In this document: positions 3,155 to 30,637 of the stretch, piece by piece
How positions within the stretch are numbered: position 1 is the first letter of the stretch
Layout: each line of letters begins with the position of its first letter
Assembly: GCA_023484305.1 (NCBI GenBank)
Contig: JAMDAL010000012.1
Span: forward strand, 1-34,597
Length of the DNA stretch: 34,597 bases
Source of the DNA: Patescibacteria group bacterium
GTDB taxonomy: Bacteria; Patescibacteriota; Microgenomatia; JACPZF01
Direction of reading: 5' to 3'
Notes under the pieces: generated by a model
Seen by the model: only the letters and a program-made list of their open reading frames with translations
The model's database searches: none
Told to the model about the DNA's origin: nothing
Translations under genes and position numbers: made by a program

Positions 3155-4102
3155 CTATTTCTGTGAGAGTGTTAAATTAAGTATAAAAGCAAAAAAGCAG
3201 AGAAGTAGCAGAATGCCCACAAATTTCGGAATAACTCTGCCTTTATAATAAAAGACAATTACCGAAAGAATAGAAGTTGCAGCGATGAAAAAAAGCCAGT
3301 CGCTTCCGGGTATAACGGCAATCGGGGTAATTAGCGCTACCACAGCGCCAATAAAAAGCAGATTGTAGATATTACTGCCTAAAATATTGCCAATGCTGAT
3401 TTTTTCCTCATGTTCTTTGACACTTAAAATCGTTGTGAGAAGTTCAGGCAGAGAAGTGACAATTGCCGTCAGAGACAACCCTAATACAGTAGTTGAATAG
3501 CCGGTTGCCGCAGCTAACGTTTCCACCGAACGCACGGTGGCAACACCCCCGGCAAAAATCCCCGCTAAGCAAAAGGACAAAAACAAAACATCCCTAAGAT
3601 TAAACGAGCCGTTTTTTTGTTTATCAAGCATTATTTTATCTTCATTTTCGCGACCTCTTAAGCCCCAAAAATACTCAGAAGAGGTGAATAAGACGGCGCA
3701 GACTAAAAGGATTAATCCGGAAATTGGAGGAATATGAAAAACTGCAATAGAAAATAAAAAGATATTAGTTGCCAAAAGCATCATCAGGGTATTGCGTTGC
3801 GTTTTGGCGGTGCCGATTCTTATATTGCCAAAAAGTATGCCTATGGCCAAGACCAAAAAAACATTGCTGATGTTTGAACCTATGATGTTTCCCAGGGCCA
3901 GGCCGGAGTCGCCTTGCAGGGCGGCAATTCCCGAAACCGACAGTTCGGGCAGGGAAGTGCCAATGGCTACAATGGTTATGCCGATAACCAAGGGAGAAAG
4001 TTTAATTTTGCCTGAAAGTTTTTCGGCCAAAAAAATTAAATTTTGAGTGGAAAAAAGCAAAACGGCAACGCCGGTTATAAAAATAATAATAGCACTAAGC
4101 AT
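3155..4102 (-). CDS. CaCA family sodium/calcium exchanger (YrbG-like)
   Basis: 315 aa polytopic membrane protein. It carries the two alpha-repeat signatures GTSLPELSVS...GNIIGSNISNVFLVLAIG and VTSLPELLTT...GNILGSNIYNLLFIGAV. Confidence 0.85.
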   Translation of the reverse strand: MLSAIIIFITGVAVLLFSTQNLIFLAEKLSGKIKLSPLVIGITIVAIGTSLPELSVSGIAALQGDSGLALGNIIGSNISNVFLVLAIGILFGNIRIGTAKTQRNTLMMLLATNIFLFSIAVFHIPPISGLILLVCAVLFTSSEYFWGLRGRENEDKIMLDKQKNGSFNLRDVLFLSFCLAGIFAGGVATVRSVETLAAATGYSTTVLGLSLTAIVTSLPELLTTILSVKEHEEKISIGNILGSNIYNLLFIGAVVALITPIAVIPGSDWLFFIAATSILSVIVFYYKGRVIPKFVGILLLLCFFAFILNLTLSQK

Positions 4103-6798: not shown

Positions 6799-7072
6799 AG
6801 GTAATACTTTTATGAAAATTGACTTTCTTGTTCTCTTTGGTTTTTTTGCACAGTTTGTTTTTTTTCTGCGTTTTGTAGTGCAGTGGCTGGCTTCGGAAAA
6901 AGAAAAGAAGAGCGTTATTCCTATGAGTTTTTGGTACCTAAGCATTATTGGTTCAATCTTGATTTTGATTTATGCCGTAAAAAGGCACGATCCGGTTTTT
7001 AGCGTCGCCCAGTTTTTAGCCCTTTTTATCTATCTTCGCAATATCATCTTAAGAAAGAAACAAAAAGATTAA
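6794..7072 (+). CDS. Lipid-A-disaccharide synthase N-terminal (LAB_N) domain small membrane protein
   Basis: The ORF track starts at 6743, but the first 17 codons read through repeat sequence (PVRPAYRQAGGRRG). The ATG at 6794 follows an AGGAGG Shine-Dalgarno at 6779-6784. The sequence FAQFVFFLRFVVQWLASEKEKKSVIPMSFWYLSIIGSILILIYAVKRHDPVF matches the LAB_N pattern. Confidence 0.7.
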   Translation: MTGNTFMKIDFLVLFGFFAQFVFFLRFVVQWLASEKEKKSVIPMSFWYLSIIGSILILIYAVKRHDPVFSVAQFLALFIYLRNIILRKKQKD

Positions 7073-7899
7073 ACTTTAAAAGCCACGACGGGAAATTTTG
7101 TCCAAAATCCGCCCGGACGGTAAGCAGTTTCCGCGAAATTTCTGGGACCGTCAACGTCGTAAGCGATTTTTTCTAATTTGGAGTATAGCAGGGTTAAAAT
7201 TCCAAAGCCATTAGCGCTCCCCCGCGCGTATGGCGTACGATGGTCGGTGTTGACAAGCGAAACCCGACCGGTTTTATCATCAAGCGCAAAAGCCAGCAAA
7301 TCATGGGTATCCAAAGTTTGGGTGGAGTCGGAAATCTGGTCGTCATTGACGGCCACAGTGGAAATCATCACCAAAAAACCCTGTTTAATAAAATCGGATA
7401 ATTCCCCGAAACTTTTGATTTGAGTTGAAGATGTTTTACAGCCCAGTTTAAGAAAAAGCCGGGTTTTTAAATAATCGGTGATTCCGTTCTCCCCGATTCT
7501 GCCCATTTTGCCGTTATACAGGGCGTGTCCGTCCCGGTAAATTCCCAAACCCCTAGCCTTGTTAACCACGTCGTTAAAAGTTATATCAGCCCCTTGCATT
7601 TTCATTCCGATCCAGGCCAGGCGCAAAGAGCAGGCCCAGCCGGAAAGTTCAGAATTCTCATAATCATGGGGCGTTTCCACGCGTGACAGATTGCCGGAAA
7701 CATTGCCGGAAACAGCTACAAAGCCCTTTTGATAGTTTTTATCTCTTAAACGAAAAGGTTCTATTTCTACCGGTTGCAAATTAATATCCGGCAACGCAAA
7801 TTTTACGACCGAAAGGCCGGGTTGTTTTTGTTCTATAAACATAATCTCTGTAATATACCACTTATTTTTTGGAAATGGTTGTACGAAGACGGAAGGCAT
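7069..7899 (-). CDS. Hypothetical protein with a C39-like (papain-fold) cysteine peptidase signature
   Basis: 276 aa. ENSELSGWACSLRLAWIGMKMQGADITFNDVV fits the catalytic-Cys helix of peptidase_C39_2-type domains. THDLLAFALDDKTGRVSLVNTD fits their His strand. I recognised this by motif only. A start at the M20 codon (7842) is also possible. Confidence 0.4.
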   Translation of the reverse strand: MPSVFVQPFPKNKWYITEIMFIEQKQPGLSVVKFALPDINLQPVEIEPFRLRDKNYQKGFVAVSGNVSGNLSRVETPHDYENSELSGWACSLRLAWIGMKMQGADITFNDVVNKARGLGIYRDGHALYNGKMGRIGENGITDYLKTRLFLKLGCKTSSTQIKSFGELSDFIKQGFLVMISTVAVNDDQISDSTQTLDTHDLLAFALDDKTGRVSLVNTDHRTPYARGSANGFGILTLLYSKLEKIAYDVDGPRNFAETAYRPGGFWTKFPVVAFKV

Positions 7900-8004
7900 A
7901 ATAAAGAAGTAAAACCCGAAAGGGGACCAACCGGTTTAGATGGTGAAGGTAATTATTGGAAAAAGGTGTGATGGTAAGAAGAGCAGGAAGTTAACCAGCA
8001 ATAT

Positions 8005-8853
8005 TCATTTTACAAAAACCCGGCCTTTTTGTTTTAAAACAAAATCAACCGCTTCCGTTAAGGAGTTAACAACCACACTTTTATTTGTGTTGGAAAACCA
8101 ATGTCGTTCCCAAGGCGGTGTGTAAGCGCCTGTAACTAAAGCCGTGCCAATATTTAACCAATTTGGCAAATATAATTCCAATTCGCCAATATCTCCAAAA
8201 ACCGCGGCGATGGGACTAAGGCGTCTAAGCGCTTCTAAATATTTTGGCCTCCCCAAATATACCGGTCTGCCTAAACCAGGAACATTTAGGCCTAGTGGTA
8301 TTTCAGGAGATAGGCTTTGTGGAGAAACAACAAATTTTTGGGCGTCTCCGACAACCTGAATATGGTTTTTCTCCCCAATTAGGGCATCAATTTTGTAGCG
8401 TACGCTGCCGGTACTGGAATTGGTGACAACCACAAATTTTCTGCTGGAACTAAGTCTTTTTAAAGCATCAATGGCATCCGGTTTAAAAAGAGCAGGAGTA
8501 CGTTTGTAAGCATAACCATAAAGTTGATTTAAGAATGCATCGGTTTCGTTTTGGTCTGGAAGATTTTTATAATTTTCGGCCCGCAGGCTGTCAATGACAA
8601 GTTTGGCACAGGCTTGGCTAAAAAGAATAATATCTGCCGCAGGCGCCACAATAATGCCGTTAATTTCCCAGCCGTACTCGCCGGGGTTTTTTAAGATTTC
8701 CTGTCCCGCGGCGGCCATTAAATCGTGAGTATAATTTTGATTTAAAGAGCAAAGTTTGGCAAACAGGGCAGTAAAGTTTTCTATATAAACAGGACTATTA
8801 AAGGTGAATGTTCCGTCGAAATCGCCCAAAATATTTCCTGCCTCTTTATTCAT
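8005..8853 (-). CDS. HAD-superfamily hydrolase-like protein
   Basis: Motif I GDFDGTFTF lies near the N-terminus, motif II is VVVTNSST, and motif IV-like is FGDIGELE. The track start at 8874 is a TTG. The ATG at 8853-8851 sits 6 nt downstream of a TATAAT box. Confidence 0.55.
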   Translation of the reverse strand: MNKEAGNILGDFDGTFTFNSPVYIENFTALFAKLCSLNQNYTHDLMAAAGQEILKNPGEYGWEINGIIVAPAADIILFSQACAKLVIDSLRAENYKNLPDQNETDAFLNQLYGYAYKRTPALFKPDAIDALKRLSSSRKFVVVTNSSTGSVRYKIDALIGEKNHIQVVGDAQKFVVSPQSLSPEIPLGLNVPGLGRPVYLGRPKYLEALRRLSPIAAVFGDIGELELYLPNWLNIGTALVTGAYTPPWERHWFSNTNKSVVVNSLTEAVDFVLKQKGRVFVK

Positions 8854-8859
8854 ATAAAA

Positions 8860-8865
8860 ATTATA
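8860..8865 (-). promoter_or_regulatory. -10 box TATAAT, 6 nt upstream of the ATG at 8853 (leaderless geometry)
   Basis: The minus-strand sense reads ggtgttaTATAATttttatATG. Confidence 0.4.
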
Positions 8866-8886
8866 TAACACCAAGCAAATTTTCTG

Positions 8887-8895
8887 TGCTACAAT
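8887..8895 (+). promoter_or_regulatory. Extended -10 promoter TGcTACAAT, 6 nt upstream of the ATG at 8902 (leaderless geometry)
   Basis: The sequence is tgTGcTACAATggatttATG, with no Shine-Dalgarno. Confidence 0.5.
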
Positions 8896-8901
8896 GGATT
8901 T

Positions 8902-10053
8902 ATGGTTAAAAAATTTCTCGGTCTTTGGGACGGCAAAAAATACTATTTTATCGCAGGATTCGTTTTGGTTTTATTCGGGCTTTTGATGTTTTTTTTGTTG
9001 CGCCCGCCCCCGGCGCAAGAAGCCTACACGGTTAAAAGAGAAAATTTTAGCAACACGGTTTTGGCGGATGCAACCTATACGACTGCTTCCCAAACTTCAG
9101 TTTGGTCGCCAACCAACGGCACCTTGACAAAACTTTTTGTAGCAAACGGCCGGCAGGTTAAAAAAGGTGATCCTCTTTTTCATGTTGAAAGCAGCGCCAC
9201 TGACGAAGAAAAAAGAACTGCCTACGCTAACTATATGGCGGATAAGTCAACTTTAGATGCGGCTACGGCAGAACTTTACACCTTGCAATCAGATATGTAT
9301 GCGGCCTGGAAAACCTATACGGATCTGGCAAAAAATTCCACCTATCAAAATTCAGACGGGACGCCCAGAAACGATAACCGCGTTTTGACGGAGTTTACGA
9401 CAGCCCAGGATGACTGGCTGGCGGCAGAGGCTAATTTTAAAAATCAGCAGACTGTCATTGCCAAAGACCAAGCTGCAGTTGCCAAAACCTGGTTGCAAAA
9501 TGAGCAAACCCAAAGCGTTACAGTTAACAGTCCGGCTGCCGGAACCGTGACCAACCTTCTGTCTCAAGTTAATGACGAAGTGGCGGTTAAACCGGCTGAC
9601 CCGGTACTCTTAGTAGCCAATTTTCACGACCCATATCTTTTAGTATCTCTTAACGAAGTTAATATTCCCAAGGTTAAGGTTGGTCAAAAAGCGACAGTAG
9701 TGTTTGATGCTTTGCCTGACAAAACTTATCATGGAGAGGTGGAAACTCTGGATAATGTAGGAACCAAAGTTTTAGGGACAGTCACTTTTGACGCCAGAAT
9801 TAAGATTGTAGACGGTGATAACGAAATTAAGCCCAATATGACAGCTTCAATAACAATTACCACTTCCAACCGTCAAAATGTTTTAACCGTTCCCAACAGC
9901 GCTTTAACAGAGAAAAACGGACAGTATTATGTGCAAAAAGCTGGTTCTTCAGGCAATAACCTTACTCCGGTTAAAGTTGGTCTAAAAGGCTTGGTAAAAA
10001 GCGAAATAAGTTCTGGCTTAACAGAAGGCGAACAGATTCTGGTTCCCCGATAG
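8902..10053 (+). CDS. HlyD/MacA-family periplasmic adaptor (membrane fusion protein)
   Basis: 383 aa with an N-terminal TM anchor. It has a lipoyl-like hairpin (VKKGDPLFHVES ... SPAAGTVTNL), a coiled-coil middle and a beta-barrel C-terminus. FtsX permease and ABC ATPase genes follow it. Confidence 0.8.
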   Translation: MVKKFLGLWDGKKYYFIAGFVLVLFGLLMFFLLRPPPAQEAYTVKRENFSNTVLADATYTTASQTSVWSPTNGTLTKLFVANGRQVKKGDPLFHVESSATDEEKRTAYANYMADKSTLDAATAELYTLQSDMYAAWKTYTDLAKNSTYQNSDGTPRNDNRVLTEFTTAQDDWLAAEANFKNQQTVIAKDQAAVAKTWLQNEQTQSVTVNSPAAGTVTNLLSQVNDEVAVKPADPVLLVANFHDPYLLVSLNEVNIPKVKVGQKATVVFDALPDKTYHGEVETLDNVGTKVLGTVTFDARIKIVDGDNEIKPNMTASITITTSNRQNVLTVPNSALTEKNGQYYVQKAGSSGNNLTPVKVGLKGLVKSEISSGLTEGEQILVPR

Positions 10054-23743: not shown

Positions 23744-24133
23744 TTAACACTTTCCTTTTTTAACTATAGAACTGACAATAGCTTCTATTTCTCCCCCTTC
23801 TTTTATAAGCAATTCCATTCTTTTAGAGAAACCGGAATTGGTAGAAGAAATAACCTTTAACCAAAAATTTGTTTCTTTAGTTTCTTTTTTTACCACCGTA
23901 TAACAATGGAAAAAATCCCGTCTGGAATTAGTACCATCTGCTTCCTGATCGTTTGCACCCATAGAAGTAACCGACCTTGTAATTTGATTTATAAGTACAA
24001 TGTTTTGCGAGGTTTTTGGTAAACTTTTCGTTAGATTAAGCACACGGACAACAAAACTAAATATACGTTTATGAATATCATAATTCTTTTGGGCCATTGA
24101 AAATTGAGAATTGGTTATATTGGAGTTGGCCAT
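23744..24133 (-). CDS. Four-helix-bundle protein (23S rRNA intervening-sequence protein / Avd-like family)
   Basis: 129 aa. It shows the family pattern ...IHKRIFSFVVRVLNLTKSLP...LINQITRSVTSMGANDQEA...RRDFFHCYTVVKKETKETNFWLKVI... Confidence 0.8.
   Translation of the reverse strand: MANSNITNSQFSMAQKNYDIHKRIFSFVVRVLNLTKSLPKTSQNIVLINQITRSVTSMGANDQEADGTNSRRDFFHCYTVVKKETKETNFWLKVISSTNSGFSKRMELLIKEGGEIEAIVSSIVKKGKC
24117..24129. repeat. Right copy of the 13-bp inverted repeat (atattggagttgg), overlapping codons 2-6 of the four-helix-bundle gene
   Basis: Exact reverse complement of 23705-23717. Confidence 0.7.
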
Positions 24134-24505: not shown

Positions 24506-24575
24506 GTCATTCCCGATCTAATCGGGAATCCATAAAATAATTATTTATATAGATTCCCGCTTGCGCGGGAATGAC
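24506..24575. repeat. Pair of family A hairpins in inverted orientation
   Basis: The two copies are gtcattcccgatctaatcgggaatc (24506-24530) and gattcccgcttgcgcgggaatgac (24552-24575). The second supplies the last codons (SFPRKRESI) and the stop of the EamA gene. Confidence 0.8.
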
Positions 24576-25498
24576 AACAAATTATGCATTATATGAAGTG
24601 GGTGTTTGGGATGTCTGGTTTCAGCTAAAAACAGACCGGAGGCGACAAGCACTGTGCCAATTAAAAAAGTAGCCGTCACTTTTTCTCCCAAAAAAAGAAT
24701 AGAGGCAATTATGGAAATTACGGGATTAATATAGGTAATAATTCCTGCTGTGGTGGCAGTGACATATTTTAACCCCCAAATGACTAAAAAGTAGCAAATA
24801 ACCGTGGCAAAAATAGTTTCATAGGCAAGGGCGAAAATTAAAAATGGCGAAAGTGATTGATAAAACTCCAAACGAAAGATGTCTTTGGCGGCAAAAGGAA
24901 CAAAGCTTATGGTTCCGATTATAAAATAGATAAAAACTAAAACCAGACTGTCGTATTTCTTGGCTATTTCTTTGTTTAAAATAACATAAGCCACCCAGGT
25001 TAAAGTGGAAAGAAGAATTAAAAGATTGCCCAGTAAATTGCCTGAGGAAAATAATCCTTTTTCCAAAATAGGCTGCAAAATGATTACCACCGTACCGGCA
25101 AAAGATAAAACTATGCCAACTGAAACAATACGGCTGATTTTTTCTTTCAAGAACAAAAAGGCAGCCACGGCAGTGAAAATGGATGTGGTGGAAATAATAA
25201 CAGAAGTGTCAATCATGCTGGTTAAAGAAAGCCCCAAAAAATAAAAACCAATATTAAAAGTGATACCCAAAAGCCCGATGACTAAAATCATCAGACAGTC
25301 GTTTTTGTCAAAGTTTTGTTTTTTTAAACGGGGAAAAACAAAAGGAAACAAGATTAGAACGGAAAAAACCATCCTTATAGCCACAAAGGTTAAGGGGGAT
25401 ATTTTATAAAGCGCTACCTTCACAATAGGACCGCCAAAACCCCAGAGGACATTGGCTAGAATTTCGGCGAGAATTCCTTGTGTTTGGGCAGAAAACAT
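24545..25498 (-). CDS. EamA/DMT-family transporter
   Basis: About 317 aa from the ATG at 25498 (the track start at 25513 is a TTG). It has ten predicted TM helices in two EamA halves. Confidence 0.75.
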   Translation of the reverse strand: MFSAQTQGILAEILANVLWGFGGPIVKVALYKISPLTFVAIRMVFSVLILFPFVFPRLKKQNFDKNDCLMILVIGLLGITFNIGFYFLGLSLTSMIDTSVIISTTSIFTAVAAFLFLKEKISRIVSVGIVLSFAGTVVIILQPILEKGLFSSGNLLGNLLILLSTLTWVAYVILNKEIAKKYDSLVLVFIYFIIGTISFVPFAAKDIFRLEFYQSLSPFLIFALAYETIFATVICYFLVIWGLKYVTATTAGIITYINPVISIIASILFLGEKVTATFLIGTVLVASGLFLAETRHPKHPLHIMHNLLSFPRKRESI

Positions 25499-25510
25499 AT
25501 TATTAAATCT

Positions 25511-25629
25511 CAAAATTTAAAATTCAAAAGTCAAATCTGCAAGTTAAAAATAAAAAGTTACTTAGTTATTCTTCGAACGAAGTGAGAAGTTTAAACAGGT
25601 ATCAGTTCTCGCTACACTCGAACAATATT
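25511..25629. repeat. Composite D+B repeat element
   Basis: D part: aaaatttaaaattcaaaagtcaaatctgcaagttaaaaataaaaagttac. B part: ttattcttcgaacgaagtgagaagt...ttctcgctacactcgaacaatatt. It has the same architecture as 32551-32651. Its right arm overlaps the last codons (VRV) and the TAG stop of hisS. Confidence 0.8.
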
Positions 25630-26826
25630 AATTAACTCTTCCTTGCTGACAGTTTTCTGTTCTTTGGTCTTCATATTCTTAACTGTAATCAGATTATTTT
25701 TCACTTCGTCCGGTCCAATAATGACTACATAGGGAATGCCTTTTTGGTCGGCATATTTAAGCTGTTTATCCAGTTTAATATTATTATCCGGATAGATATC
25801 AGTATTGAGTCCCTGGTTTCTTAATTTTCCGACAACATCCAACGATTTTTCCAAAAGTTCCGGAGAGAAAATAGTAACTAAAACTTTGCTGGTGGTTTTA
25901 AATGTTGGCAGAAGGCCCAGTTCGTCAGCTGCTTCTAGGGTACGGTCAAACCCCAGCGCAAAACCAGTTGCAGCCACATCAATGCCGGAAATACTGCCAA
26001 CTACCTTATCATACCTTTCTCCGCCCAAAACAGAACCCCCGGCATAGCTGGGAACTATGATTTCCCAAATTGGACCGGAAGAGTAGGAAAAAGAGCGGGC
26101 GATAGACGGATCGAATTTATAGCAACCTTGTTCAAAACCGTAATCTTTTAAATATTCAAGAATAGTTTTAATAGTTTCATTTGGCTTAATGTTTTCTGCC
26201 TTTTCCAGATATTCTTTGGCTTGGGACAAACTAATGCCGCTGTCAGTCATTTCTTTTAACACGTCGTCTTTGCCAATTTTTTTTATTTTATCAATGGCGA
26301 CAATGGCATCGTAGGGCATGTCTTTTAACAGAGCTCTGTCGCTAATCAAAACCTGCACGTCTTTAAAATTAAGTCTTCTGTAAATATCTAAACTCAAGGC
26401 AATAGTTTCGGCATCAGCCACAGCTCCTGGCACGCCAAAAATATCAGCATCGCACTGCAAAAACTCCCGATAGCGTCCTTTTTGAGGCTTATCGGCCCTA
26501 TAGGCAGACTGTATCTGATATCTTTTAAAGGGAAAGGTTAGCTTAGAATAATAATTGGCAATGACTCTGGATGTGGGAACGCTTTGATCATAGCGAAGAG
26601 CCACGTCTCTGCCGCCAAAATCTTTAAACTTATAAAATAATTTTTCTCCTTCTCCGATTTGTCCCACAAAAATTTCCAACGGTTCCAAGGTTGGTGTTTC
26701 CAGGGGTTCATATCCCCAGAGTTCAAAGACCTCTATAATTTTATTCTTTAACCACTGGCGTTTCATGGCCTCTTCGGGCAAGAAATCGCGAAAACCTTTT
26801 AATGCTTGCGGTATAACTTTTTTCAT
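25612..26826 (-). CDS. hisS: Histidine--tRNA ligase
   Basis: GFRDFLPEE starts the class II HisRS region. Motif 2 is RYDQSVPTSRV...FKRYQIQSAYRADKPQKGRYREFLQCDADIFG. The C-terminal anticodon-binding domain is present (VLVTIFSPE...QLKYADQKGIPYVVIIGPDE). The ATG at 26826 follows AGGAAGG. The track start at 26844 is a TTG. Confidence 0.92.
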   Translation of the reverse strand: MKKVIPQALKGFRDFLPEEAMKRQWLKNKIIEVFELWGYEPLETPTLEPLEIFVGQIGEGEKLFYKFKDFGGRDVALRYDQSVPTSRVIANYYSKLTFPFKRYQIQSAYRADKPQKGRYREFLQCDADIFGVPGAVADAETIALSLDIYRRLNFKDVQVLISDRALLKDMPYDAIVAIDKIKKIGKDDVLKEMTDSGISLSQAKEYLEKAENIKPNETIKTILEYLKDYGFEQGCYKFDPSIARSFSYSSGPIWEIIVPSYAGGSVLGGERYDKVVGSISGIDVAATGFALGFDRTLEAADELGLLPTFKTTSKVLVTIFSPELLEKSLDVVGKLRNQGLNTDIYPDNNIKLDKQLKYADQKGIPYVVIIGPDEVKNNLITVKNMKTKEQKTVSKEELINIVRV

Positions 26827-26889
26827 ATTTTTCCTTCCTATCAAAACTATATCATCTACCTCTTAAATTGGGTAGTGATTGTTTTTATG

Positions 26890-26943
26890 TCCGATGTGTG
26901 AAGCTATTCCACATCCGATGTGGAATGCTATTGACACATCGGG
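26890..26943. repeat. Tandem 24/25-bp direct repeat with internal dyad symmetry, between the aminopeptidase stop and the hisS start
   Basis: The units are ccgatgtgtgaagctattccacat and ccgatgtggaatgctattgacacat, followed by cggg. The dyads are ttccacatc/gatgtggaa and ccgatgtgtg/cacatcgg. Confidence 0.6.
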
Positions 26944-26956
26944 AAAACCAGTAATT

Positions 26957-27949
26957 TCAGACATAAAACTCATTATTTTTCAAAATTGTTTTTCCATCCA
27001 CCTCTAAGGTGGGTAAGAGTATTACGCCATCTGAGTGAAACTGAACATTACAAGTTCCCCCATAGCTAATATTATTGCCGATTCCAATGTGGACTGTGCC
27101 AAAAACTTTTTCCACCTCTAAAATACTGGAATTAAGTTTAGCCATTTTGTTGGTGCCTACTCCCAATTCGGCAATGTTTCTGGATTTTTGCCCTAGTTTT
27201 TTAAACGTTCTTTCTAATTCTTTAGCTGCCGTTCCTCCGGAAACTTTTGTTATAAATCCGTTTTTAACTCCCAAAACAATGGGTTTATCCAGCGGTACGT
27301 CATCTAAATAGGAACAACCGTCAACTACGATTATTCCCTCGCTTGTTCCTTCTTTGGGACTCATGGCGCTTTCTCCTGCCGGTAAATTTCCCCAGGCGCC
27401 TATGTCAGTAAAAATGCCGGTGTCAGCTTCAGCTTCCATATTTTCTATTGACATAATCAGATTGGTTCCTGCCGCAGAAGAAACACGCACCTTATTGGCT
27501 CTTGTTAAAAAAGCCGCCAGCGGTTTAGTCAATTTTTCTACTTCCTGATAATCCATTTTCATCGTTCTTAAAAAGACCTCATAAGTTATCCCGGGCATAC
27601 TGGCAATGCGTACGCCTTTTTTGGTGGCGTTTCTTCTGGCATTAGTGTGGGATAAAGACATGGTTGTCACTAAAAAAAGTACATCGGTATCAGACATTAT
27701 ATTAGCCAATTTAATTTTGGGTTCCCGACCGTCATAGCCCGGAATTTTGATTTGTAACAGTTTGACATTTTTGCTGATTGTTTTTGCCGACTCAAAAATA
27801 ATATTGGCTGGTTTAATGGAGCCCGAATCGGTAATAACTAAAACTTTTTCTTTGGGTTTAACACCCATGCAAACTTTAACTGTATTTAAACCCACTGCTA
27901 ACTCATCTGGAGTTAATTTTTTTAGTATTTTAGTTTTATCATCTCGCAT
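26957..27949 (-). CDS. Aminopeptidase, M29 (aminopeptidase T/S)-like
   Basis: 330 aa. I recognise general similarity to COG2309/M29 enzymes (VLVITD..., GTNLIMSIE, EADTGI, LPAGESAMSP, VVDG, ELGVGTN, GTVHIGIGNN). Metal ligands were not verified. Confidence 0.55.
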   Translation of the reverse strand: MRDDKTKILKKLTPDELAVGLNTVKVCMGVKPKEKVLVITDSGSIKPANIIFESAKTISKNVKLLQIKIPGYDGREPKIKLANIMSDTDVLFLVTTMSLSHTNARRNATKKGVRIASMPGITYEVFLRTMKMDYQEVEKLTKPLAAFLTRANKVRVSSAAGTNLIMSIENMEAEADTGIFTDIGAWGNLPAGESAMSPKEGTSEGIIVVDGCSYLDDVPLDKPIVLGVKNGFITKVSGGTAAKELERTFKKLGQKSRNIAELGVGTNKMAKLNSSILEVEKVFGTVHIGIGNNISYGGTCNVQFHSDGVILLPTLEVDGKTILKNNEFYV

Positions 27950-27993
27950 ATGAATCCTTTCTGAAGTAAATTCCTCAGTCTAGTGTGTGAAAC

Positions 27994-29376
27994 TTACTGA
28001 GTCTGTAGTTTACGCAATTGTTCCTTTCTCCAGGCATAATAAGTATAAATATCAGAAGTTGGTGAGACAACGACAAGTTTGTCATTAGCCCCTTTTTGTA
28101 ACCAATCGGTGACCCGGAAATCTTCGATGTTAATAACACAAGCATCCATATCGCTAAGCGCCATTCCTTCGCCATAATACATAGAGTAATACCACAAAAC
28201 CCGTTCAAGTTTTTCTCTTCGTTTTATAACTCCCGGATTTATCCCGTAACTTATTAAGTATGAATCATCTTCTGGAATACAAACCGATTCTATTTCTGAT
28301 ATCAATTCAGCGTTTTGTTTAATCTTGTCATATGCTGTTGTTGTATAAACTTGTGGTTCTGGCAAACCAAAAGATAAACAGAGTTCACTCCAGGTCATTA
28401 CTAAAGAATCAATACCGTTGTATCTAGTAATATCTTCCCAAAACAAATCTAGATTTTGTCTAACCTTCTTGATAAGCAGTTTCCGTTCTTCTTCGGTTTG
28501 TGCAAATTCCCACAAGCGGGAATCTTTCGCTTCGCTATCAGGAACAACCAATGCAATGATAGCAGGTCCTAATTGTGATAAAACTTTCGCTGTTTCTTTA
28601 ATGGTCTTACCATGATAGAAAACAGGCGTTAATTCTATTCTGGGATCAATTTTTGCTGCAGGATATTTTTTTCCCCTTTCTTCCCACTGAAATCTAAAAC
28701 AATTATAAACAAGAAAAAGTTCTGGAAAGCCTCTAGCCAGATTGACCAATTTGTTCAAAAGAGTGGGGCGATCAGGAATAGGGCGTCTATTAAATTCGTT
28801 TACCTCAAAATATCTAAGCGTATCAAGAATTAATGGTGCTTTTTCAGTTGGTAAATTATCAACTGACATTATATATTCCCAGTCTTTTTCTCTTTGTTTC
28901 TTTTTTACCGGAGGTTTCTGTTGCTCTATAGCTAAAGCGTTAGTTTTTGGTACAAAAGATACTCTAGTTTTATCTCTAGCCTGTAAAAAAGCCACTCGCC
29001 GCAACTTGGCCGCAGAAAATCTTGAGCGGTCAACTACTTTTGAACCATCTCTAAAATTAAATTCCCGACTGCATCCAATAACTTTTTTGGCAGAAACCAA
29101 AGAGTAAAAAGTTTCTAATCCGTCAGTAGGTTTTATTGATTTAGGAATAAGAGCAGTTTGATAATTTTGACCATCAACACATAAATCTAATGGGTTAGTA
29201 GAAAGTTGTCCTAAAACCTTTGCCGAAGACAATCCCGTTCTTCTGGCAATTTCGATTGTTTTTATCGCTGGCAACATGTTCAGTGATGGAGTTTTTAACC
29301 ATGGCGACAATACAGCGTTTACAGCTGTTATTATTTTGTCGCGATTAATTCCAGAATCTAAATTTTCTTTAGTCAT
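27994..29376 (-). CDS. Hypothetical protein (460 aa): N-terminal HTH-like segment, Lys-rich linker, unrecognised C-terminal domain of about 290 aa
   Basis: A long clean ORF that starts 6 nt after the stop of the upstream DapF-like gene. IEIARRTGLSSAKVLGQL looks like a helix-turn-helix. The rest matches no family I recognise. It looks AT-richer than its neighbours by eye. Confidence 0.7.
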   Translation of the reverse strand: MTKENLDSGINRDKIITAVNAVLSPWLKTPSLNMLPAIKTIEIARRTGLSSAKVLGQLSTNPLDLCVDGQNYQTALIPKSIKPTDGLETFYSLVSAKKVIGCSREFNFRDGSKVVDRSRFSAAKLRRVAFLQARDKTRVSFVPKTNALAIEQQKPPVKKKQREKDWEYIMSVDNLPTEKAPLILDTLRYFEVNEFNRRPIPDRPTLLNKLVNLARGFPELFLVYNCFRFQWEERGKKYPAAKIDPRIELTPVFYHGKTIKETAKVLSQLGPAIIALVVPDSEAKDSRLWEFAQTEEERKLLIKKVRQNLDLFWEDITRYNGIDSLVMTWSELCLSFGLPEPQVYTTTAYDKIKQNAELISEIESVCIPEDDSYLISYGINPGVIKRREKLERVLWYYSMYYGEGMALSDMDACVINIEDFRVTDWLQKGANDKLVVVSPTSDIYTYYAWRKEQLRKLQTQ

Positions 29377-29382
29377 AGAAAA

Positions 29383-30204
29383 TTATATTGATATAGATTC
29401 CCGTTTACACGGGAATGACAAAGTTATATTTTTCTTTAAAATTTTTATGGGACCGTCTATTTTGGCAGAGATGAAATATTGACTGTTTTTCTTAACCGAA
29501 ACATAAATTCGCTTACAAGACGGTTGAAGAACAGGAAGGCTATCCACAATTATTTGTTTTTGAGAAAGGTAAAGACCTACAGCTGTTGTTCCGCTGGCAC
29601 AGGCAGTTTCATAGAAAAATGTTTTTATATCCCGTACCCAAACAACCGGCTCAATCGCATAGAGTCCGTTTTTCTTGTATAAAAACATCACTCCGGAGGC
29701 CGGCACAGAAGTTATAAGTCCAAGCTGTTTTAAGATTTTTAATGCTTCTTTTTTAGCCTTTTGCTGATTTATAAATTTTTCTTTTTTCTCAACTATCACA
29801 AGGGTTATACCGTAAAGCGGTATTATCATGTAATTATCTTGGTAAGAAATAACTTTCGGATTTTTATAAATTGGCATTTGGGCCCAAGCAGTATTTTTTC
29901 CTGATACTCCGGCCTTTAACAGGCGATTAACGCCAGAAACTTTTATTTCAGTTTCTCCAGGCAGTCCTTTTAGCGCCAGAAAAACTGTTGACCTTGTGGC
30001 GTTTCCACAAAATTCACCACCTGCCATTTGTAATTCAGGTTTTGAAAGGTCAATAAAACCCACCTGTTCAACGTTTTTATATTTTTTCATAATTGTGTCA
30101 TTAATAATTTTTTTCTCTTCCATTGATCTATTAATTCCCAAAACCAGAGCAGTGTCATTACCCCCCGGTTTGACAATAGTGATGTTGGAAATAATTTTTT
30201 TCAT
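29383..30204 (-). CDS. DapF-fold (diaminopimelate-epimerase-like) PLP-independent two-cysteine racemase/epimerase homologue
   Basis: 273 aa from the ATG at 30204, preceded by the strong Shine-Dalgarno AAGGGGGA (the track start at 30294 would overlap the tRNA). VKPGGNDTALVL corresponds to the GxGNDF block. GGEFCGNATRS corresponds to the first catalytic Cys block (CGNGxR). YETACASGTTAV corresponds to the second Cys block. Substrate is unknown. Confidence 0.6.
   Translation of the reverse strand: MKKIISNITIVKPGGNDTALVLGINRSMEEKKIINDTIMKKYKNVEQVGFIDLSKPELQMAGGEFCGNATRSTVFLALKGLPGETEIKVSGVNRLLKAGVSGKNTAWAQMPIYKNPKVISYQDNYMIIPLYGITLVIVEKKEKFINQQKAKKEALKILKQLGLITSVPASGVMFLYKKNGLYAIEPVVWVRDIKTFFYETACASGTTAVGLYLSQKQIIVDSLPVLQPSCKRIYVSVKKNSQYFISAKIDGPIKILKKNITLSFPCKRESISI
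29396..29419. repeat. Family A hairpin gattcccgtttacacgggaatgac inside the 3' end of the DapF-like ORF
   Basis: It is near-identical in sequence and flank (atatagattcccg...cgggaatgacaa) to 24552-24575. It encodes the terminal ...SFPCKRESISI. Confidence 0.8.
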
Positions 30205-30225
30205 AAAAATCCCCCTTTTACTATC

Positions 30226-30241
30226 AATACATCGATGTATT
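30226..30241. promoter_or_regulatory. Perfect 16-bp palindrome AATACATCGATGTATT between tRNA-His and the DapF-like Shine-Dalgarno
   Basis: The sequence is self-complementary. It may be an operator or an RNA processing hairpin. Function is unknown. Confidence 0.3.
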
Positions 30242-30251
30242 AGCAGTAAAC

Positions 30252-30327
30252 TGGGGTGGTGTACGGGAGTCGAACCCGCTAAAACTGCCTCCACAGGGCA
30301 GCGCCTGACCGTTTGGCATACACCACC
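30252..30327 (-). tRNA. tRNA-His (anticodon GTG) with genomically encoded G-1 and 3' CCA
   Basis: The manual cloverleaf has G-1 opposite C73 and an acceptor stem GTGGTGT/ACACCAC. The D stem is GCC(A)/(A)GGC. The anticodon stem CTGCC/GGCAG carries the loop CT-GTG-GA. The variable loop is TTTTA. The T arm is GCGGG-TTCGACT-CCCGT. The 3' end is C73-CCA. Confidence 0.9.
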
Positions 30328-30382
30328 AAAAAACCTCCCGTTCTTTGTCGATCATAAAAAATGATAAACAAGGAACGAGAGG
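30328..30382 (-). terminator. Intrinsic terminator of the T-box leader
   Basis: RNA sense: CCUCUCGUUCCUUG (30382-30369) pairs with CAAAGAACGGGAGG (30347-34), giving 12 Watson-Crick pairs, 1 G-U and 1 mismatch. An inner AUCAU/AUGAU extends the helix, and UUUUUU follows (30333-30328). The U-tract abuts G-1 of tRNA-His. Confidence 0.75.
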
Positions 30383-30600
30383 TAACAAAAAAGGACCTCC
30401 CGCGGTCCCATCCTTAAATTCCTAGAAGCTTTTTTCTTCTAAGCTCTTTGGTCGGCTCCGCGCTTCATTTAAACTTGCGACACCGGCTGTTGTATTTTTA
30501 CGGTTCAACTTCCGTAGAGCATTTTGGCTCTCAACTCCTGGATCGTGACTCCAGTAAAACGTTTTTATTTCGTAAGAAACAAACTTGTTTCTTAAATTGT
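30328..30600 (-). promoter_or_regulatory. Candidate T-box riboswitch leader, histidine-specific (short Stem I type)
   Basis: The T-box-like core is AAUUUAAGGAUGGGACCGCGGGAGG (30420-30396), compared with the consensus AAUUAGGGUGGNACCGCG. In the antiterminator, helix A1 is AAGGA (30415-11) / UCCUU (30374-70). The 7-nt bulge is UGGGACC (30410-04). Helix A2 is GCGGGAGG (30403-30396) / CCUCUCGU (30382-75). The A1/A2 3' strands form the 5' strand of the terminator. The Stem III-like hairpin is CUUAGAAG-AAAAAAG-CUUCUAGG (about 30421-30443). The hairpin CUGGA-GUCACGA-UCCAG (30554-30538) displays CAC. Confidence 0.65.
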
Positions 30601-30607
30601 AAAAAGA

Positions 30608-30637
30608 ATATTAACACAAGCTGTCAACTTTTGTCAA
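30608..30637 (-). promoter_or_regulatory. Sigma70-type promoter TTGACA-N17/18-TTAATAT driving the T-box leader
   Basis: Minus-strand sense: TTGACA (30637-30632), a 17-nt spacer, then TTAATA/TAATAT (30614-30608). It starts one nt after the stop codon (30639-30641) of the upstream gene. Confidence 0.55.

Follow-up and report, generated by a model that had tools for sequence, protein, structure and literature searches.

A candidate histidine-responsive gene array in Patescibacteria that joins a reduced T-box leader, tRNA-His, a histidine racemase homologue and hisS

In a 34,597-nucleotide (nt) contig of a Patescibacteria group bacterium (GenBank assembly GCA_023484305.1, contig JAMDAL010000012.1; 'the window' refers to this whole stretch of DNA), the minus strand between positions 25,612 and 30,637 carries six elements in series: a T-box leader, a tRNA-His gene, a racemase gene, genes for a 460-amino-acid (aa) orphan protein and a 330-aa metalloenzyme, and hisS. 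On balance, we favour the view that these form a conserved operon, with expression set by the charging of tRNA-His and with products that restore histidyl-tRNA-His (His-tRNA-His). Sequence comparison makes control of the array by tRNA-His charging well supported, and from it we infer that the array is co-transcribed and depends on histidine. The linkage itself is far beyond chance, as adjacency of the racemase and orphan genes and their linkage to hisS and tRNA-His recur in dozens of independent genomes.

That two unrelated sensors serve the same genes is the strongest argument for a response of the array to histidine limitation. Members of the candidate phyla radiation (CPR), to which Patescibacteria belong, place either a T-box or a leader-peptide attenuator in front of this gene set. 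A first-pass annotation, made from the window sequence alone, had proposed an array responsive to histidine limitation that runs from a histidine T-box to hisS. Conservation, the absence of an internal terminator and the second histidine sensor now strengthen that core reading, and the linkage proves to extend well beyond the one genome. The main elements are as follows.

30608–30637, minus strand: promoter-like TTGACA, 18-nt spacer, TG-TAATAT (consensus match only, 10/12, with an extended −10 TG)
30368–30568, minus strand: histidine-specific T-box leader with a short Stem I (Rfam RF00230; custom model; covariation)
30252–30326, minus strand, with G-1 at 30327: tRNA-His(GUG) (ARAGORN; Rfam tRNA, 47.1 bits)
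29383–30204, minus strand: homologue of HisR/CntK-type cofactor-independent histidine racemases, 273 aa (NCBIfam; PDB 9cr6; CntK_N)
27994–29376, minus strand: 460-aa protein of an unannotated CPR family (HMMER family; AlphaFold 2 (AF2) model; Foldseek)
26957–27949, minus strand: metalloenzyme of the M29/NicX fold, 330 aa, probably a peptidase (Pfam; family profile; invariant residues)
25612–26826, minus strand: hisS, histidine–tRNA ligase, 404 aa (TIGR00442, 336 bits versus a cut-off of 287)
24545–25498, minus strand: transporter of the EamA/DMT family (Pfam EamA, 1.4e-49)

Histidine sensors at the head of the array

A whole-window Rfam scan at the gathering score and E ≤ 10 did not report a T-box. 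When the 341-nt leader was scanned alone, RF00230 matched end to end (30568–30368; 35.9 bits, E = 1.3e-6). The low score arises because 7 nt replace 76 Stem I positions of the model. We nevertheless regard the T-box as real because homologous leaders, one on a genome contig (L012) and one on a metagenome contig (L089), keep its pairs and show compensatory changes. Across the three leaders, all 19 tested pairs are kept; both partners have changed in six of them, of which four belong to Stem II and one each to Stem I and Stem IIA. The observed covariation was reached by just 1 of 500 shuffles, and sliding the registers drops pairing to 25–52%. A covariance model built from the three leaders (R1) matches only these leaders, at 191–209 bits, and found no further copy in 1.16 Mb of related loci. 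The T-box of the first-pass annotation is thus a weak Rfam match backed by compensatory pairs, and the comparison identifies the leader as a reduced, histidine-specific T-box with the following parts.

30538–30554, minus strand: Stem I hairpin CUGGA-GUCACGA-UCCAG (loop invariant in three leaders; compensatory G-C to A-U change in the stem)
30547–30545, minus strand: specifier codon CAC (His) in the terminal loop of Stem I (loop invariant in the window, L012 and L089)
30531–30516, minus strand: Stem II, a plain 5-base-pair (bp) hairpin (placed on the Stem II consensus by the Rfam alignment; four of five pairs changed on both sides in L012)
30514–30501, minus strand: Stem IIA with an F-box-like CCGUAA (Rfam IIA/B consensus; one of three pairs changed on both sides in L012)
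30370–30415, minus strand: antiterminator, with A1 AAGGA/UCCUU and A2 GCGGGA/UCUCGU (11 pairs, −7.7 kcal/mol)
30410–30404, minus strand: 7-nt T-box bulge UGGGACC within AAGGA-UGGGACC-GCGGGA (from the sequence)
30386–30409, minus strand: first terminator-like hairpin GGGACC-GCGGGA-GGUCCU followed by U6 (the sole minus-strand site listed by the terminator scan within 25612–30637; −9.7 kcal/mol)
30328–30383, minus strand: second, long terminator hairpin with a 23-bp arm, followed by U6 (−26.4 kcal/mol; conserved in L012 and L089)

The specifier codon matches the set of genes downstream, which comprises tRNA-His, the histidine racemase homologue and hisS. The leader contains the T-box sequence AGGAUGGGACCGCGGGA, within a 28-nt core that is identical in the window, L012 and L089, and the UGGG of the bulge can pair with the 3′-terminal CCCA of the adjacent tRNA-His, in which C73 is the discriminator. 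The first terminator-like hairpin sequesters this bulge, and the second terminator takes the 3′ strand of the antiterminator as its own 5′ strand; both hairpins thus have strands in common with the antiterminator and are mutually exclusive with it. A small hairpin, AAGAAACAAGUUUGUUUCUU, lies at the extreme 5′ end of the leader, upstream of Stem I (30573–30594, minus strand), and is not conserved in L012 or L089.

The leader resembles known T-box riboswitches, including those of actinobacterial ileS, in the pairing of a specifier codon with the anticodon and of a UGGN bulge with the uncharged NCCA end, and in the competition between an antiterminator and a terminator or sequestrator. An ultrashort Stem I class has been described for actinobacterial translational T-boxes (PMC7583486). 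The window leader shares with such ileS T-boxes a short Stem I that lacks the elbow-binding platform and is followed by Stems II and IIA, with an F-box-like CCGU(A/C)A. Actinobacterial ileS T-boxes with an ultrashort Stem I were reportedly described by Sherwood (2015), and PMC7583486 reviews them. Unlike known T-boxes, the leader occurs in Patescibacteria, scores only 35.9 bits against RF00230, has a Stem II without a recognizable S-turn and sets one antiterminator against two successive terminators. In addition, the first gene downstream is the sensed tRNA itself, unlike the T-box targets reported in the literature that we searched, and these searches returned nothing relevant on a T-box in CPR bacteria or upstream of a tRNA gene.

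The tRNA-His gene encodes G-1, the discriminator C73 and the CCA end. It abuts the U-run of the terminator in the window and is placed in the same way in L012, and the simplest reading is that the tRNA is made from transcripts that read through the T-box. We considered a promoter for the tRNA inside the terminator (TTGTTA-16-TATCAT) and rejected this candidate, which is not conserved in L012. In L089 there is no tRNA gene between the T-box and the racemase, and the T-box leads straight into the racemase gene (3661–3997). There, the 3′ strand of the terminator contains the Shine–Dalgarno sequence of the racemase gene (GGGAGG), located 7 nt ahead of the AUG, an arrangement like that of translational T-boxes; the L089 T-box could act on both transcription and translation.

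Other relatives carry a different sensor. In L002, a 15-codon open reading frame (ORF), MLKQSLLSLHHHHAV, followed by alternative hairpins and a terminator, stands in place of the T-box and tRNA (6834–6990), and L001, the closest relative, has at its 5′ end (1–132) a match to the last part of this leader ORF. Histidine-codon attenuators also occur at L014 (6595–6700) and L015 (6647–6740); in both, a leader peptide with three histidine codons is followed, in order, by a terminator, tRNA-His and the racemase gene, and the tRNA-His of L014 has its own TATAAT. More widely, short ORFs with three to four consecutive histidine codons lie upstream of racemase clusters in many CPR and Clostridial loci, and terminator and antiterminator hairpins follow them in L002, L003, L009, L010, L014, L038, L046 and many Clostridia. 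Counting only ORFs of this type that end no more than 400 nt upstream of a racemase gene, there are 12, compared with 0.72 expected from the rest of the 1.06 Mb. No canonical T-box was found at the gathering score in the Clostridial racemase loci.

From these sequences, the T-box and the leader-peptide attenuator appear as mechanistically unrelated sensors of tRNA-His charging that were recruited to the same gene set, and the sensor seems to have been swapped between close relatives (an attenuator in one, a T-box plus tRNA-His in another). The signal, scarce His-tRNA-His, is that of hisL attenuation in the enterobacterial his operon and of T-box-controlled his and hisS operons in Firmicutes. 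The relatives of the window locus resemble hisL in their histidine-codon ORFs and alternative hairpins and in the control of hisS or his genes. Unlike the classical his regulon, the controlled set includes a racemase, a GNAT or cyclodipeptide synthase (CDPS)-fold protein, enzymes of D-peptidase families, tRNA-His and an EamA transporter.

The array and its genes

The strand, gap lengths and Shine–Dalgarno sequences in the first-pass annotation are exact. About 270 nt of leader separate the promoter-like site from tRNA-His, and L089 has TTGACA-17-TATACT at the position equivalent to that site. The gap between tRNA-His and the racemase gene is 47 nt, with a AAAGGGGGA Shine–Dalgarno sequence; it is followed by gaps of 6 nt (racemase to 460-aa gene), 44 nt (460-aa to M29/NicX-like gene, with AAAGGA) and 130 nt (M29/NicX-like gene to hisS, with AGGAAGG). 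The T-box thus lies at the head of the array and hisS at its tail, as had been described. Gaps of 6 and 44 nt are too short to contain promoters. A terminator scan found no terminator-like site on the minus strand from tRNA-His to the end of hisS, and the minus-strand sites within 25612–30637 are confined to the leader. Of the two findings that would have split the array according to the first-pass annotation, canonical terminators between the genes are thus absent; as for internal promoters, the short gaps leave no space for them, but the 130-nt gap holds a conserved promoter-like motif.

Across genomes, the racemase gene is immediately upstream of the orphan gene in every locus with upstream sequence, usually overlapping it or a few bases apart (the window, L001, L002, L005, L009–L012, L036 and 14 metagenome contigs; the metagenome loci were sought with a profile of 13 sequences, the full alignment being too diverse). 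After the orphan gene comes a beta-lactamase-family protein with AmpH/D-aminopeptidase-like best matches (L002, L009, L010, L011 and L036) or a NicX/M29-like protein, alone or with the beta-lactamase-family gene (the window, L001, L009, L011 and L091), and then hisS. In other lineages, a GNAT domain fused to the racemase takes the place of the orphan; in L007, L013, L014 and L015, this fusion is followed by an M15 dipeptidase like VanX/DdpX and then by hisS. The partner genes in relatives thus include the D-stereospecific peptidase families M15 (VanX/DdpX-like) and AmpH/D-aminopeptidase-like.

Of 80 racemase loci, each representing a distinct species, 33 have a full-length histidyl-tRNA synthetase (HisRS) gene no more than 7 kb away on the same strand. 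In nine loci, tRNA-His adjoins the racemase cluster, just upstream, and most relatives show hisS abutting or overlapping the gene before it. In 19 CPR loci, the next gene after hisS, often with an overlap, is an EamA gene (the window, L002, L007, L009–L013, L015, L018, L022, L038, L089, L090, L092, L094, L095, L097 and L099). For this reason, the EamA gene is probably the last of the conserved module, and the array would run past 25612–30637. Synteny between L002 and the window extends over dnaB, a metallo-beta-lactamase-fold gene, two small genes, the leader, racemase, orphan, a hydrolase, hisS, EamA, L31 and RF1. The window has a 129-aa ORF (23744–24133, minus strand) between the L31 and RF1 genes, which are adjacent in L002; it is a possible insertion.

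In Clostridia, the racemase–GNAT pair lies among hisZ, hisG and hisIE, together with one or two genuine HisRS genes. It stands between hisG and hisIE in L053, L056 and L065, where one locus has two genuine HisRS genes, and in L079 an M15 dipeptidase is fused to HisG (7791–9557). In Weissella oryzae SG25 (L084, 5289–7741), a leader peptide, MFKSNVTLHHHLHR, an amino-acid permease and the racemase follow one another. Judged from its gene content, this locus of a cultured organism reduces the module to a minimal 'import and racemise' form.

The 273-aa protein, which the first-pass annotation had called a DapF-fold racemase, can be specified further as a homologue of HisR/CntK-type histidine racemases with both catalytic cysteines. 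Its best NCBIfam matches are HisR (NF052224, 1.1e-29) and CntK (NF033599, 4.9e-20), both under the equivalog cut-offs (104 versus 400 bits and 72 versus 300 bits, respectively), its precomputed Pfam family is CntK_N and its best PDB match is the Fusobacterium nucleatum histidine racemase (9CR6/9CR1, 6e-18 over 249 residues). The 273-aa protein retains the catalytic residues Cys66 (GGEFCGNA) and Cys202 (CASGTTA), neither of which varies in 33 homologues, together with the acidic pocket residues (EQVGF and YE motifs). At E < 1e-10, the family counts about 1,900 members; Patescibacteria supply most of them, and some are fused to a GNAT acetyltransferase.

The protein shares the DapF fold, the two cysteine motifs and the acidic pocket with HisR of F. 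nucleatum (PDB 9CR1/9CR6) and CntK of Staphylococcus aureus. Unlike HisR, an orphan gene, and CntK, part of the cntKLM staphylopine cluster, it is coupled here to hisS, tRNA-His and histidine-sensing leaders. The only HisR paper leaves the biological role open and reports an unrelated gene neighbourhood, and it describes CntK as a histidine racemase that feeds D-histidine into staphylopine (PMC11602996). A staphylopine-like metallophore cluster was considered for the window locus and rejected, as no CntL- or CntM-like genes are among the annotated neighbours. The histidine-specific leaders and the linkage to hisS and tRNA-His give indirect support to the putative racemization of histidine by the 273-aa protein.

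The orphan gene encodes a protein that had been called uncharacterized, and searches of Pfam, NCBIfam and PDB sequences indeed gave no match. A word-indexed homologue search returned a single relative, 66% identical; an exhaustive HMMER search found a family of 62 cluster representatives, most of 500–540 aa, in which the C-terminal ~270 residues are best conserved. With a 57-sequence alignment, AF2 gave a model at pLDDT 91.9, compared with only 40 with a 2-sequence alignment. In a Foldseek search of the PDB, the top 50 matches of this model consist only of CDPSs and catalytic domains of tyrosyl-tRNA synthetase (TyrRS), a fold that the first-pass annotation, in pointing to structure prediction, had not foreseen. 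The CDPSs include 5OCD, 9J61, AlbC (4Q24/3OQV), 9I5M, 6Y4B and 9GUN, with a best E of 9e-5, a Foldseek probability of 1.0, target-normalised TM-scores (TMt) of 0.52–0.62 and alignments of ~240–275 columns at ~10% identity. The only credible matches in the viral library BFVD are two CDPSs.

We do not file the orphan as a CDPS, because all sequence-level comparisons, with Pfam (no CDPS match), NCBIfam, PDB sequences (no CDPS found with the family profile) and hhalign (probability of 0.1% against four CDPSs), were negative. The C-terminal ~260 residues form a Rossmann-type class-Ic fold like that of CDPSs (AlbC, YvmC and Rv2275) and of the TyrRS/TrpRS catalytic domain. As in CDPSs, HIGH- and KMSKS-like motifs were not found in the family, nor was a conserved histidine-rich motif. 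Conserved Tyr and Glu residues sit in a late helix (Tyr396, Tyr400 and Glu403; YxxMYxGEG). Conserved residues comprise Asn225-Cys226, directly after the first Rossmann strand, Pro279, the invariant Glu282, Gln293, Arg298, Trp329, Tyr396, Tyr400, Gly402-Glu403-Gly404, Glu418 and Pro439. By strand and motif order, these motifs can be tentatively lined up with GIS37, Y178xxxE182 and Y202 of AlbC, an alignment that would put Cys226 where CDPSs carry the acyl-enzyme Ser37; Cys226 may play the part of that serine.

Unlike CDPSs, the orphan is twice as long, has Cys for Ser, differs in the spacing of its Tyr/Glu motifs, gives no profile–profile signal and has a basic N-terminal extension of ~200 aa. 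These residues include a winged-helix-like unit in the model and are strongly basic (median isoelectric point (pI) 9.6; net charge +12.5 in the window protein); the catalytic-like domain is acidic (pI 5.4). Some members of the family (P0127, P0133 and P0128) have a C-terminal extension of ~230 aa that looks, from strand and motif order, like a second, degenerate copy of the Rossmann-like domain. The extensions of the longer members have no Pfam match and nothing matching in the loci.

The locus supplies a context related to CDPSs and aminoacyl-tRNA synthetases, namely a tRNA gene and its synthetase. We argue that the orphan may act on histidine or tRNA-His because it is strictly coupled to the racemase, is interchanged with the racemase-fused GNAT and combines a tRNA-handling fold with a basic extension.

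The 330-aa protein had been called an M29 aminopeptidase. The match behind this call is weak and sub-threshold (Pfam M29, PF02073, 21.5 bits versus a cut-off of 27), and the sequence is nearer NicX, although putative metal ligands of the M29 type are kept. Its fold family comprises M29 (PepS, AmpS and aminopeptidase T) and the 2,5-dihydroxypyridine dioxygenase NicX; it is shorter than M29 enzymes, and a four-sequence profile matched NicX (7CN3) at 1.2e-15 and the aminopeptidase PepS at 1.2e-3. E193, E261, H287, H305 and D307 are invariant in four homologues, a pattern (E, E, H, HxD) that, with the NicX alignment as a guide, would fit the M29 two-metal site. The NicX iron ligand His265 is replaced by Glu, presumably as in M29 peptidases, and for this reason the protein is more probably a metallopeptidase than a dioxygenase.

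At the end of the array, the hisS product has the Pfam domains tRNA-synt_His and HGTP_anticodon. The gap before hisS and the end of the racemase gene contain the following further elements.

26891–26942, minus strand: long palindromic hairpin, 52 nt, near-perfect (fold z-score −5.3; no U-run)
26850–26875, minus strand: 26-nt motif CTACCCAATTTAAGAGGTAGATGATA with an extended −10-like TGaTATAGT (unique in the window)
29397–29416, strand unassigned: repetitive extragenic palindrome (REP)-like ATTCCCG-N6-CGGGAAT in the last codons of the racemase gene (palindrome count)

No second T-box and no other Rfam match was found in the gap before hisS. The motif CTACCCAATTTAAGAGGTAGATGATA is 100% identical at L001 3351–3376, where the flanking proteins are 66–73% identical and the next gene is not hisS. 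It may be an internal promoter for hisS, an operator or a small RNA hairpin; because it contains the TGnTATAGT extended −10-like sequence, hisS may have an extra promoter and may also be transcribed alone. The REP-like palindrome has two copies in the window, compared with 0.02 expected. The second copy is in the last codons of the EamA gene (24553–24572), and both proteins end in '...KRESI'. A role as terminator was rejected for this hairpin, as no U-run follows it and the L001 homologue lacks it; it appears to be a REP-like insertion, perhaps a processing or stability element.

Favoured mechanism and competing explanations

We hypothesize the following course for a conserved operon set by tRNA-His charging, with the switch itself backed by sequence, structure and covariation. 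Transcription would start near 30600, and the leader would display CAC in the loop of its short Stem I and UGGG in its bulge. Uncharged tRNA-His would pair its anticodon GUG with CAC and its free CCCA end with UGGG, and its binding would stabilize the 11-bp antiterminator, dissolving the two successive terminator hairpins. Polymerase would then read into tRNA-His, the racemase, the CDPS-fold protein, the M29-type metallopeptidase, hisS and probably EamA. The products would jointly restore His-tRNA-His, with more tRNA and more synthetase, and with L-histidine drawn from outside through the EamA transporter, from peptides through the peptidase and from D-histidine through the racemase. The salvage direction from D- to L-histidine is our proposal. 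The 460-aa protein would act on tRNA-His or His-tRNA-His, as its fold and context suggest.

Several observations weigh against this account. Co-transcription and the dependence on histidine are read from sequence, the T-box score of 35.9 bits is far under the Rfam gathering score of 93 bits, and the leader lacks both the elbow-binding distal platform of Stem I and the S-turn of Stem II. A strong hairpin and a conserved promoter-like motif occupy the gap before hisS, and in L001, L036 and L098 the module is not followed by hisS. In Clostridia, the racemase–GNAT pair sits inside a histidine biosynthesis operon, where salvage is less obvious. The racemase runs both ways, which is odd for a starvation response, and a CDPS-like enzyme, which would consume His-tRNA-His, would be similarly odd; the similarity of the orphan to CDPSs is structural only (TMt 0.52–0.62; hhalign 0.1%).

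The poor fit between spending His-tRNA-His and starvation control is the reason for which two other roles of the orphan are kept as rivals of the charging-controlled supply operon. The locus could instead be a self-contained, tRNA-dependent biosynthetic cassette, which we consider rather unlikely: HisRS would charge the co-encoded tRNA-His, the CDPS-fold enzyme would take the histidyl group through Cys226 and the product would be a histidine dipeptide or cyclodipeptide, completed from a second His-tRNA or from D-histidine made by the racemase. The M29/NicX-fold enzyme would tailor or recycle this product and EamA would export it, with the T-box present mainly because hisS is a usual target. 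Proteins of the EamA family are often exporters. CDPSs lead the structural matches in two libraries; the orphan shows strict coupling to the racemase and, in other lineages, gives way to a racemase-fused GNAT acyltransferase; and the same clusters include a dedicated gene for tRNA-His and, in Clostridia, another genuine HisRS gene. Precedents exist in CntK, which sends D-histidine into staphylopine (PMC11602996), and in histidine-using CDPSs, one of them from a Parcubacteria genome (PMC7613923, PMC11372833). However, with either leader type the genes would be turned on under a shortage of His-tRNA-His, a moment ill suited to spending it; no relation to CDPSs appears at the sequence level (Pfam, PDB profile and hhalign), CntL and CntM are missing among the annotated neighbours, and the partner enzymes belong to families that hydrolyse D-amino-acid peptides and would undo the product. 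Quality control is a very improbable role. It supposes that the equilibration of L- and D-histidine risks D-His-tRNA-His, that the CDPS-fold protein (GNAT elsewhere) removes or marks mis-acylated tRNA-His and that the peptidases clear by-products. Members of the GNAT family, such as the TacT-type toxins, act on aminoacyl-tRNA, and the orphan joins an aminoacyl-tRNA-handling fold and a basic N-terminal domain to tight coupling with the racemase, HisRS and tRNA-His; but the case is purely contextual, no similarity to editing domains was found, and both the racemase and the transporter are left unexplained.

Whether the elements form one operon at all is a separate matter. The T-box might control only tRNA-His, and perhaps the racemase, with the downstream genes expressed from internal promoters and their adjacency a consequence of how compactly CPR genomes pack genes on one strand. 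The REP-like hairpin at the 3′ end of the racemase gene, the palindrome and conserved TGnTATAGT motif before hisS, the promoter-like match inside the terminator and the TATAAT of the L014 tRNA-His all lend themselves to this idea. We nevertheless think it improbable: the two short gaps cannot house promoters, U-run terminators are missing inside the array, the genes of relatives overlap or abut through to hisS and EamA, the linkage recurs across phyla, and the promoter-like match in the terminator is not conserved in L012.

Novelty and meaning for CPR bacteria

T-boxes, histidine attenuators, HisR/CntK racemases and CDPS folds are each known already. As far as the searched literature shows, the conserved module, the CPR T-box variant that transcribes its own ligand and the CDPS-fold family tied to them are new, in keeping with the first-pass view that this gene set is not a described system. 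The orphan has a substantial chance of representing a new type of tRNA-dependent enzyme. More tentatively, and with less than even confidence, we suggest that it founds a new aminoacyl-tRNA-dependent family that uses His-tRNA-His to make a histidine dipeptide or cyclodipeptide in a T-box-gated, self-supplied operon. Such an enzyme would combine a CDPS/class-Ic fold, a Cys nucleophile and a basic tRNA-binding N-terminal domain, and would probably use D-histidine made by the racemase. If this is true, tRNA, synthetase, racemase, hydrolase and transporter would all come from the operon itself, and its gating by a T-box that both senses its tRNA ligand and has it transcribed would amount to an autoregulatory loop of a kind not seen before.

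HisR-type racemases were, to our knowledge, characterized only in 2024, and we know of no role for them outside staphylopine synthesis. That the racemase travels with hisS, tRNA-His and histidine-sensing leaders across Patescibacteria and Clostridia makes the role of the HisR type testable. About 60 dark protein clusters gain a fold (CDPS/class-Ic aminoacyl-tRNA synthetase-like) and a context that points to tRNA-His as their partner; a new family of tRNA-dependent enzymes in CPR bacteria, if true, would be relevant to both natural-product and translation research. The leader would extend the range of T-boxes to CPR bacteria in a minimal form, with its own tRNA ligand as the first regulated product, and the replacement of a T-box by a leader-peptide attenuator is documented between close relatives. 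CPR organisms are thought to scavenge most of their building blocks, and the locus suggests how their supply of histidine is sensed and met.

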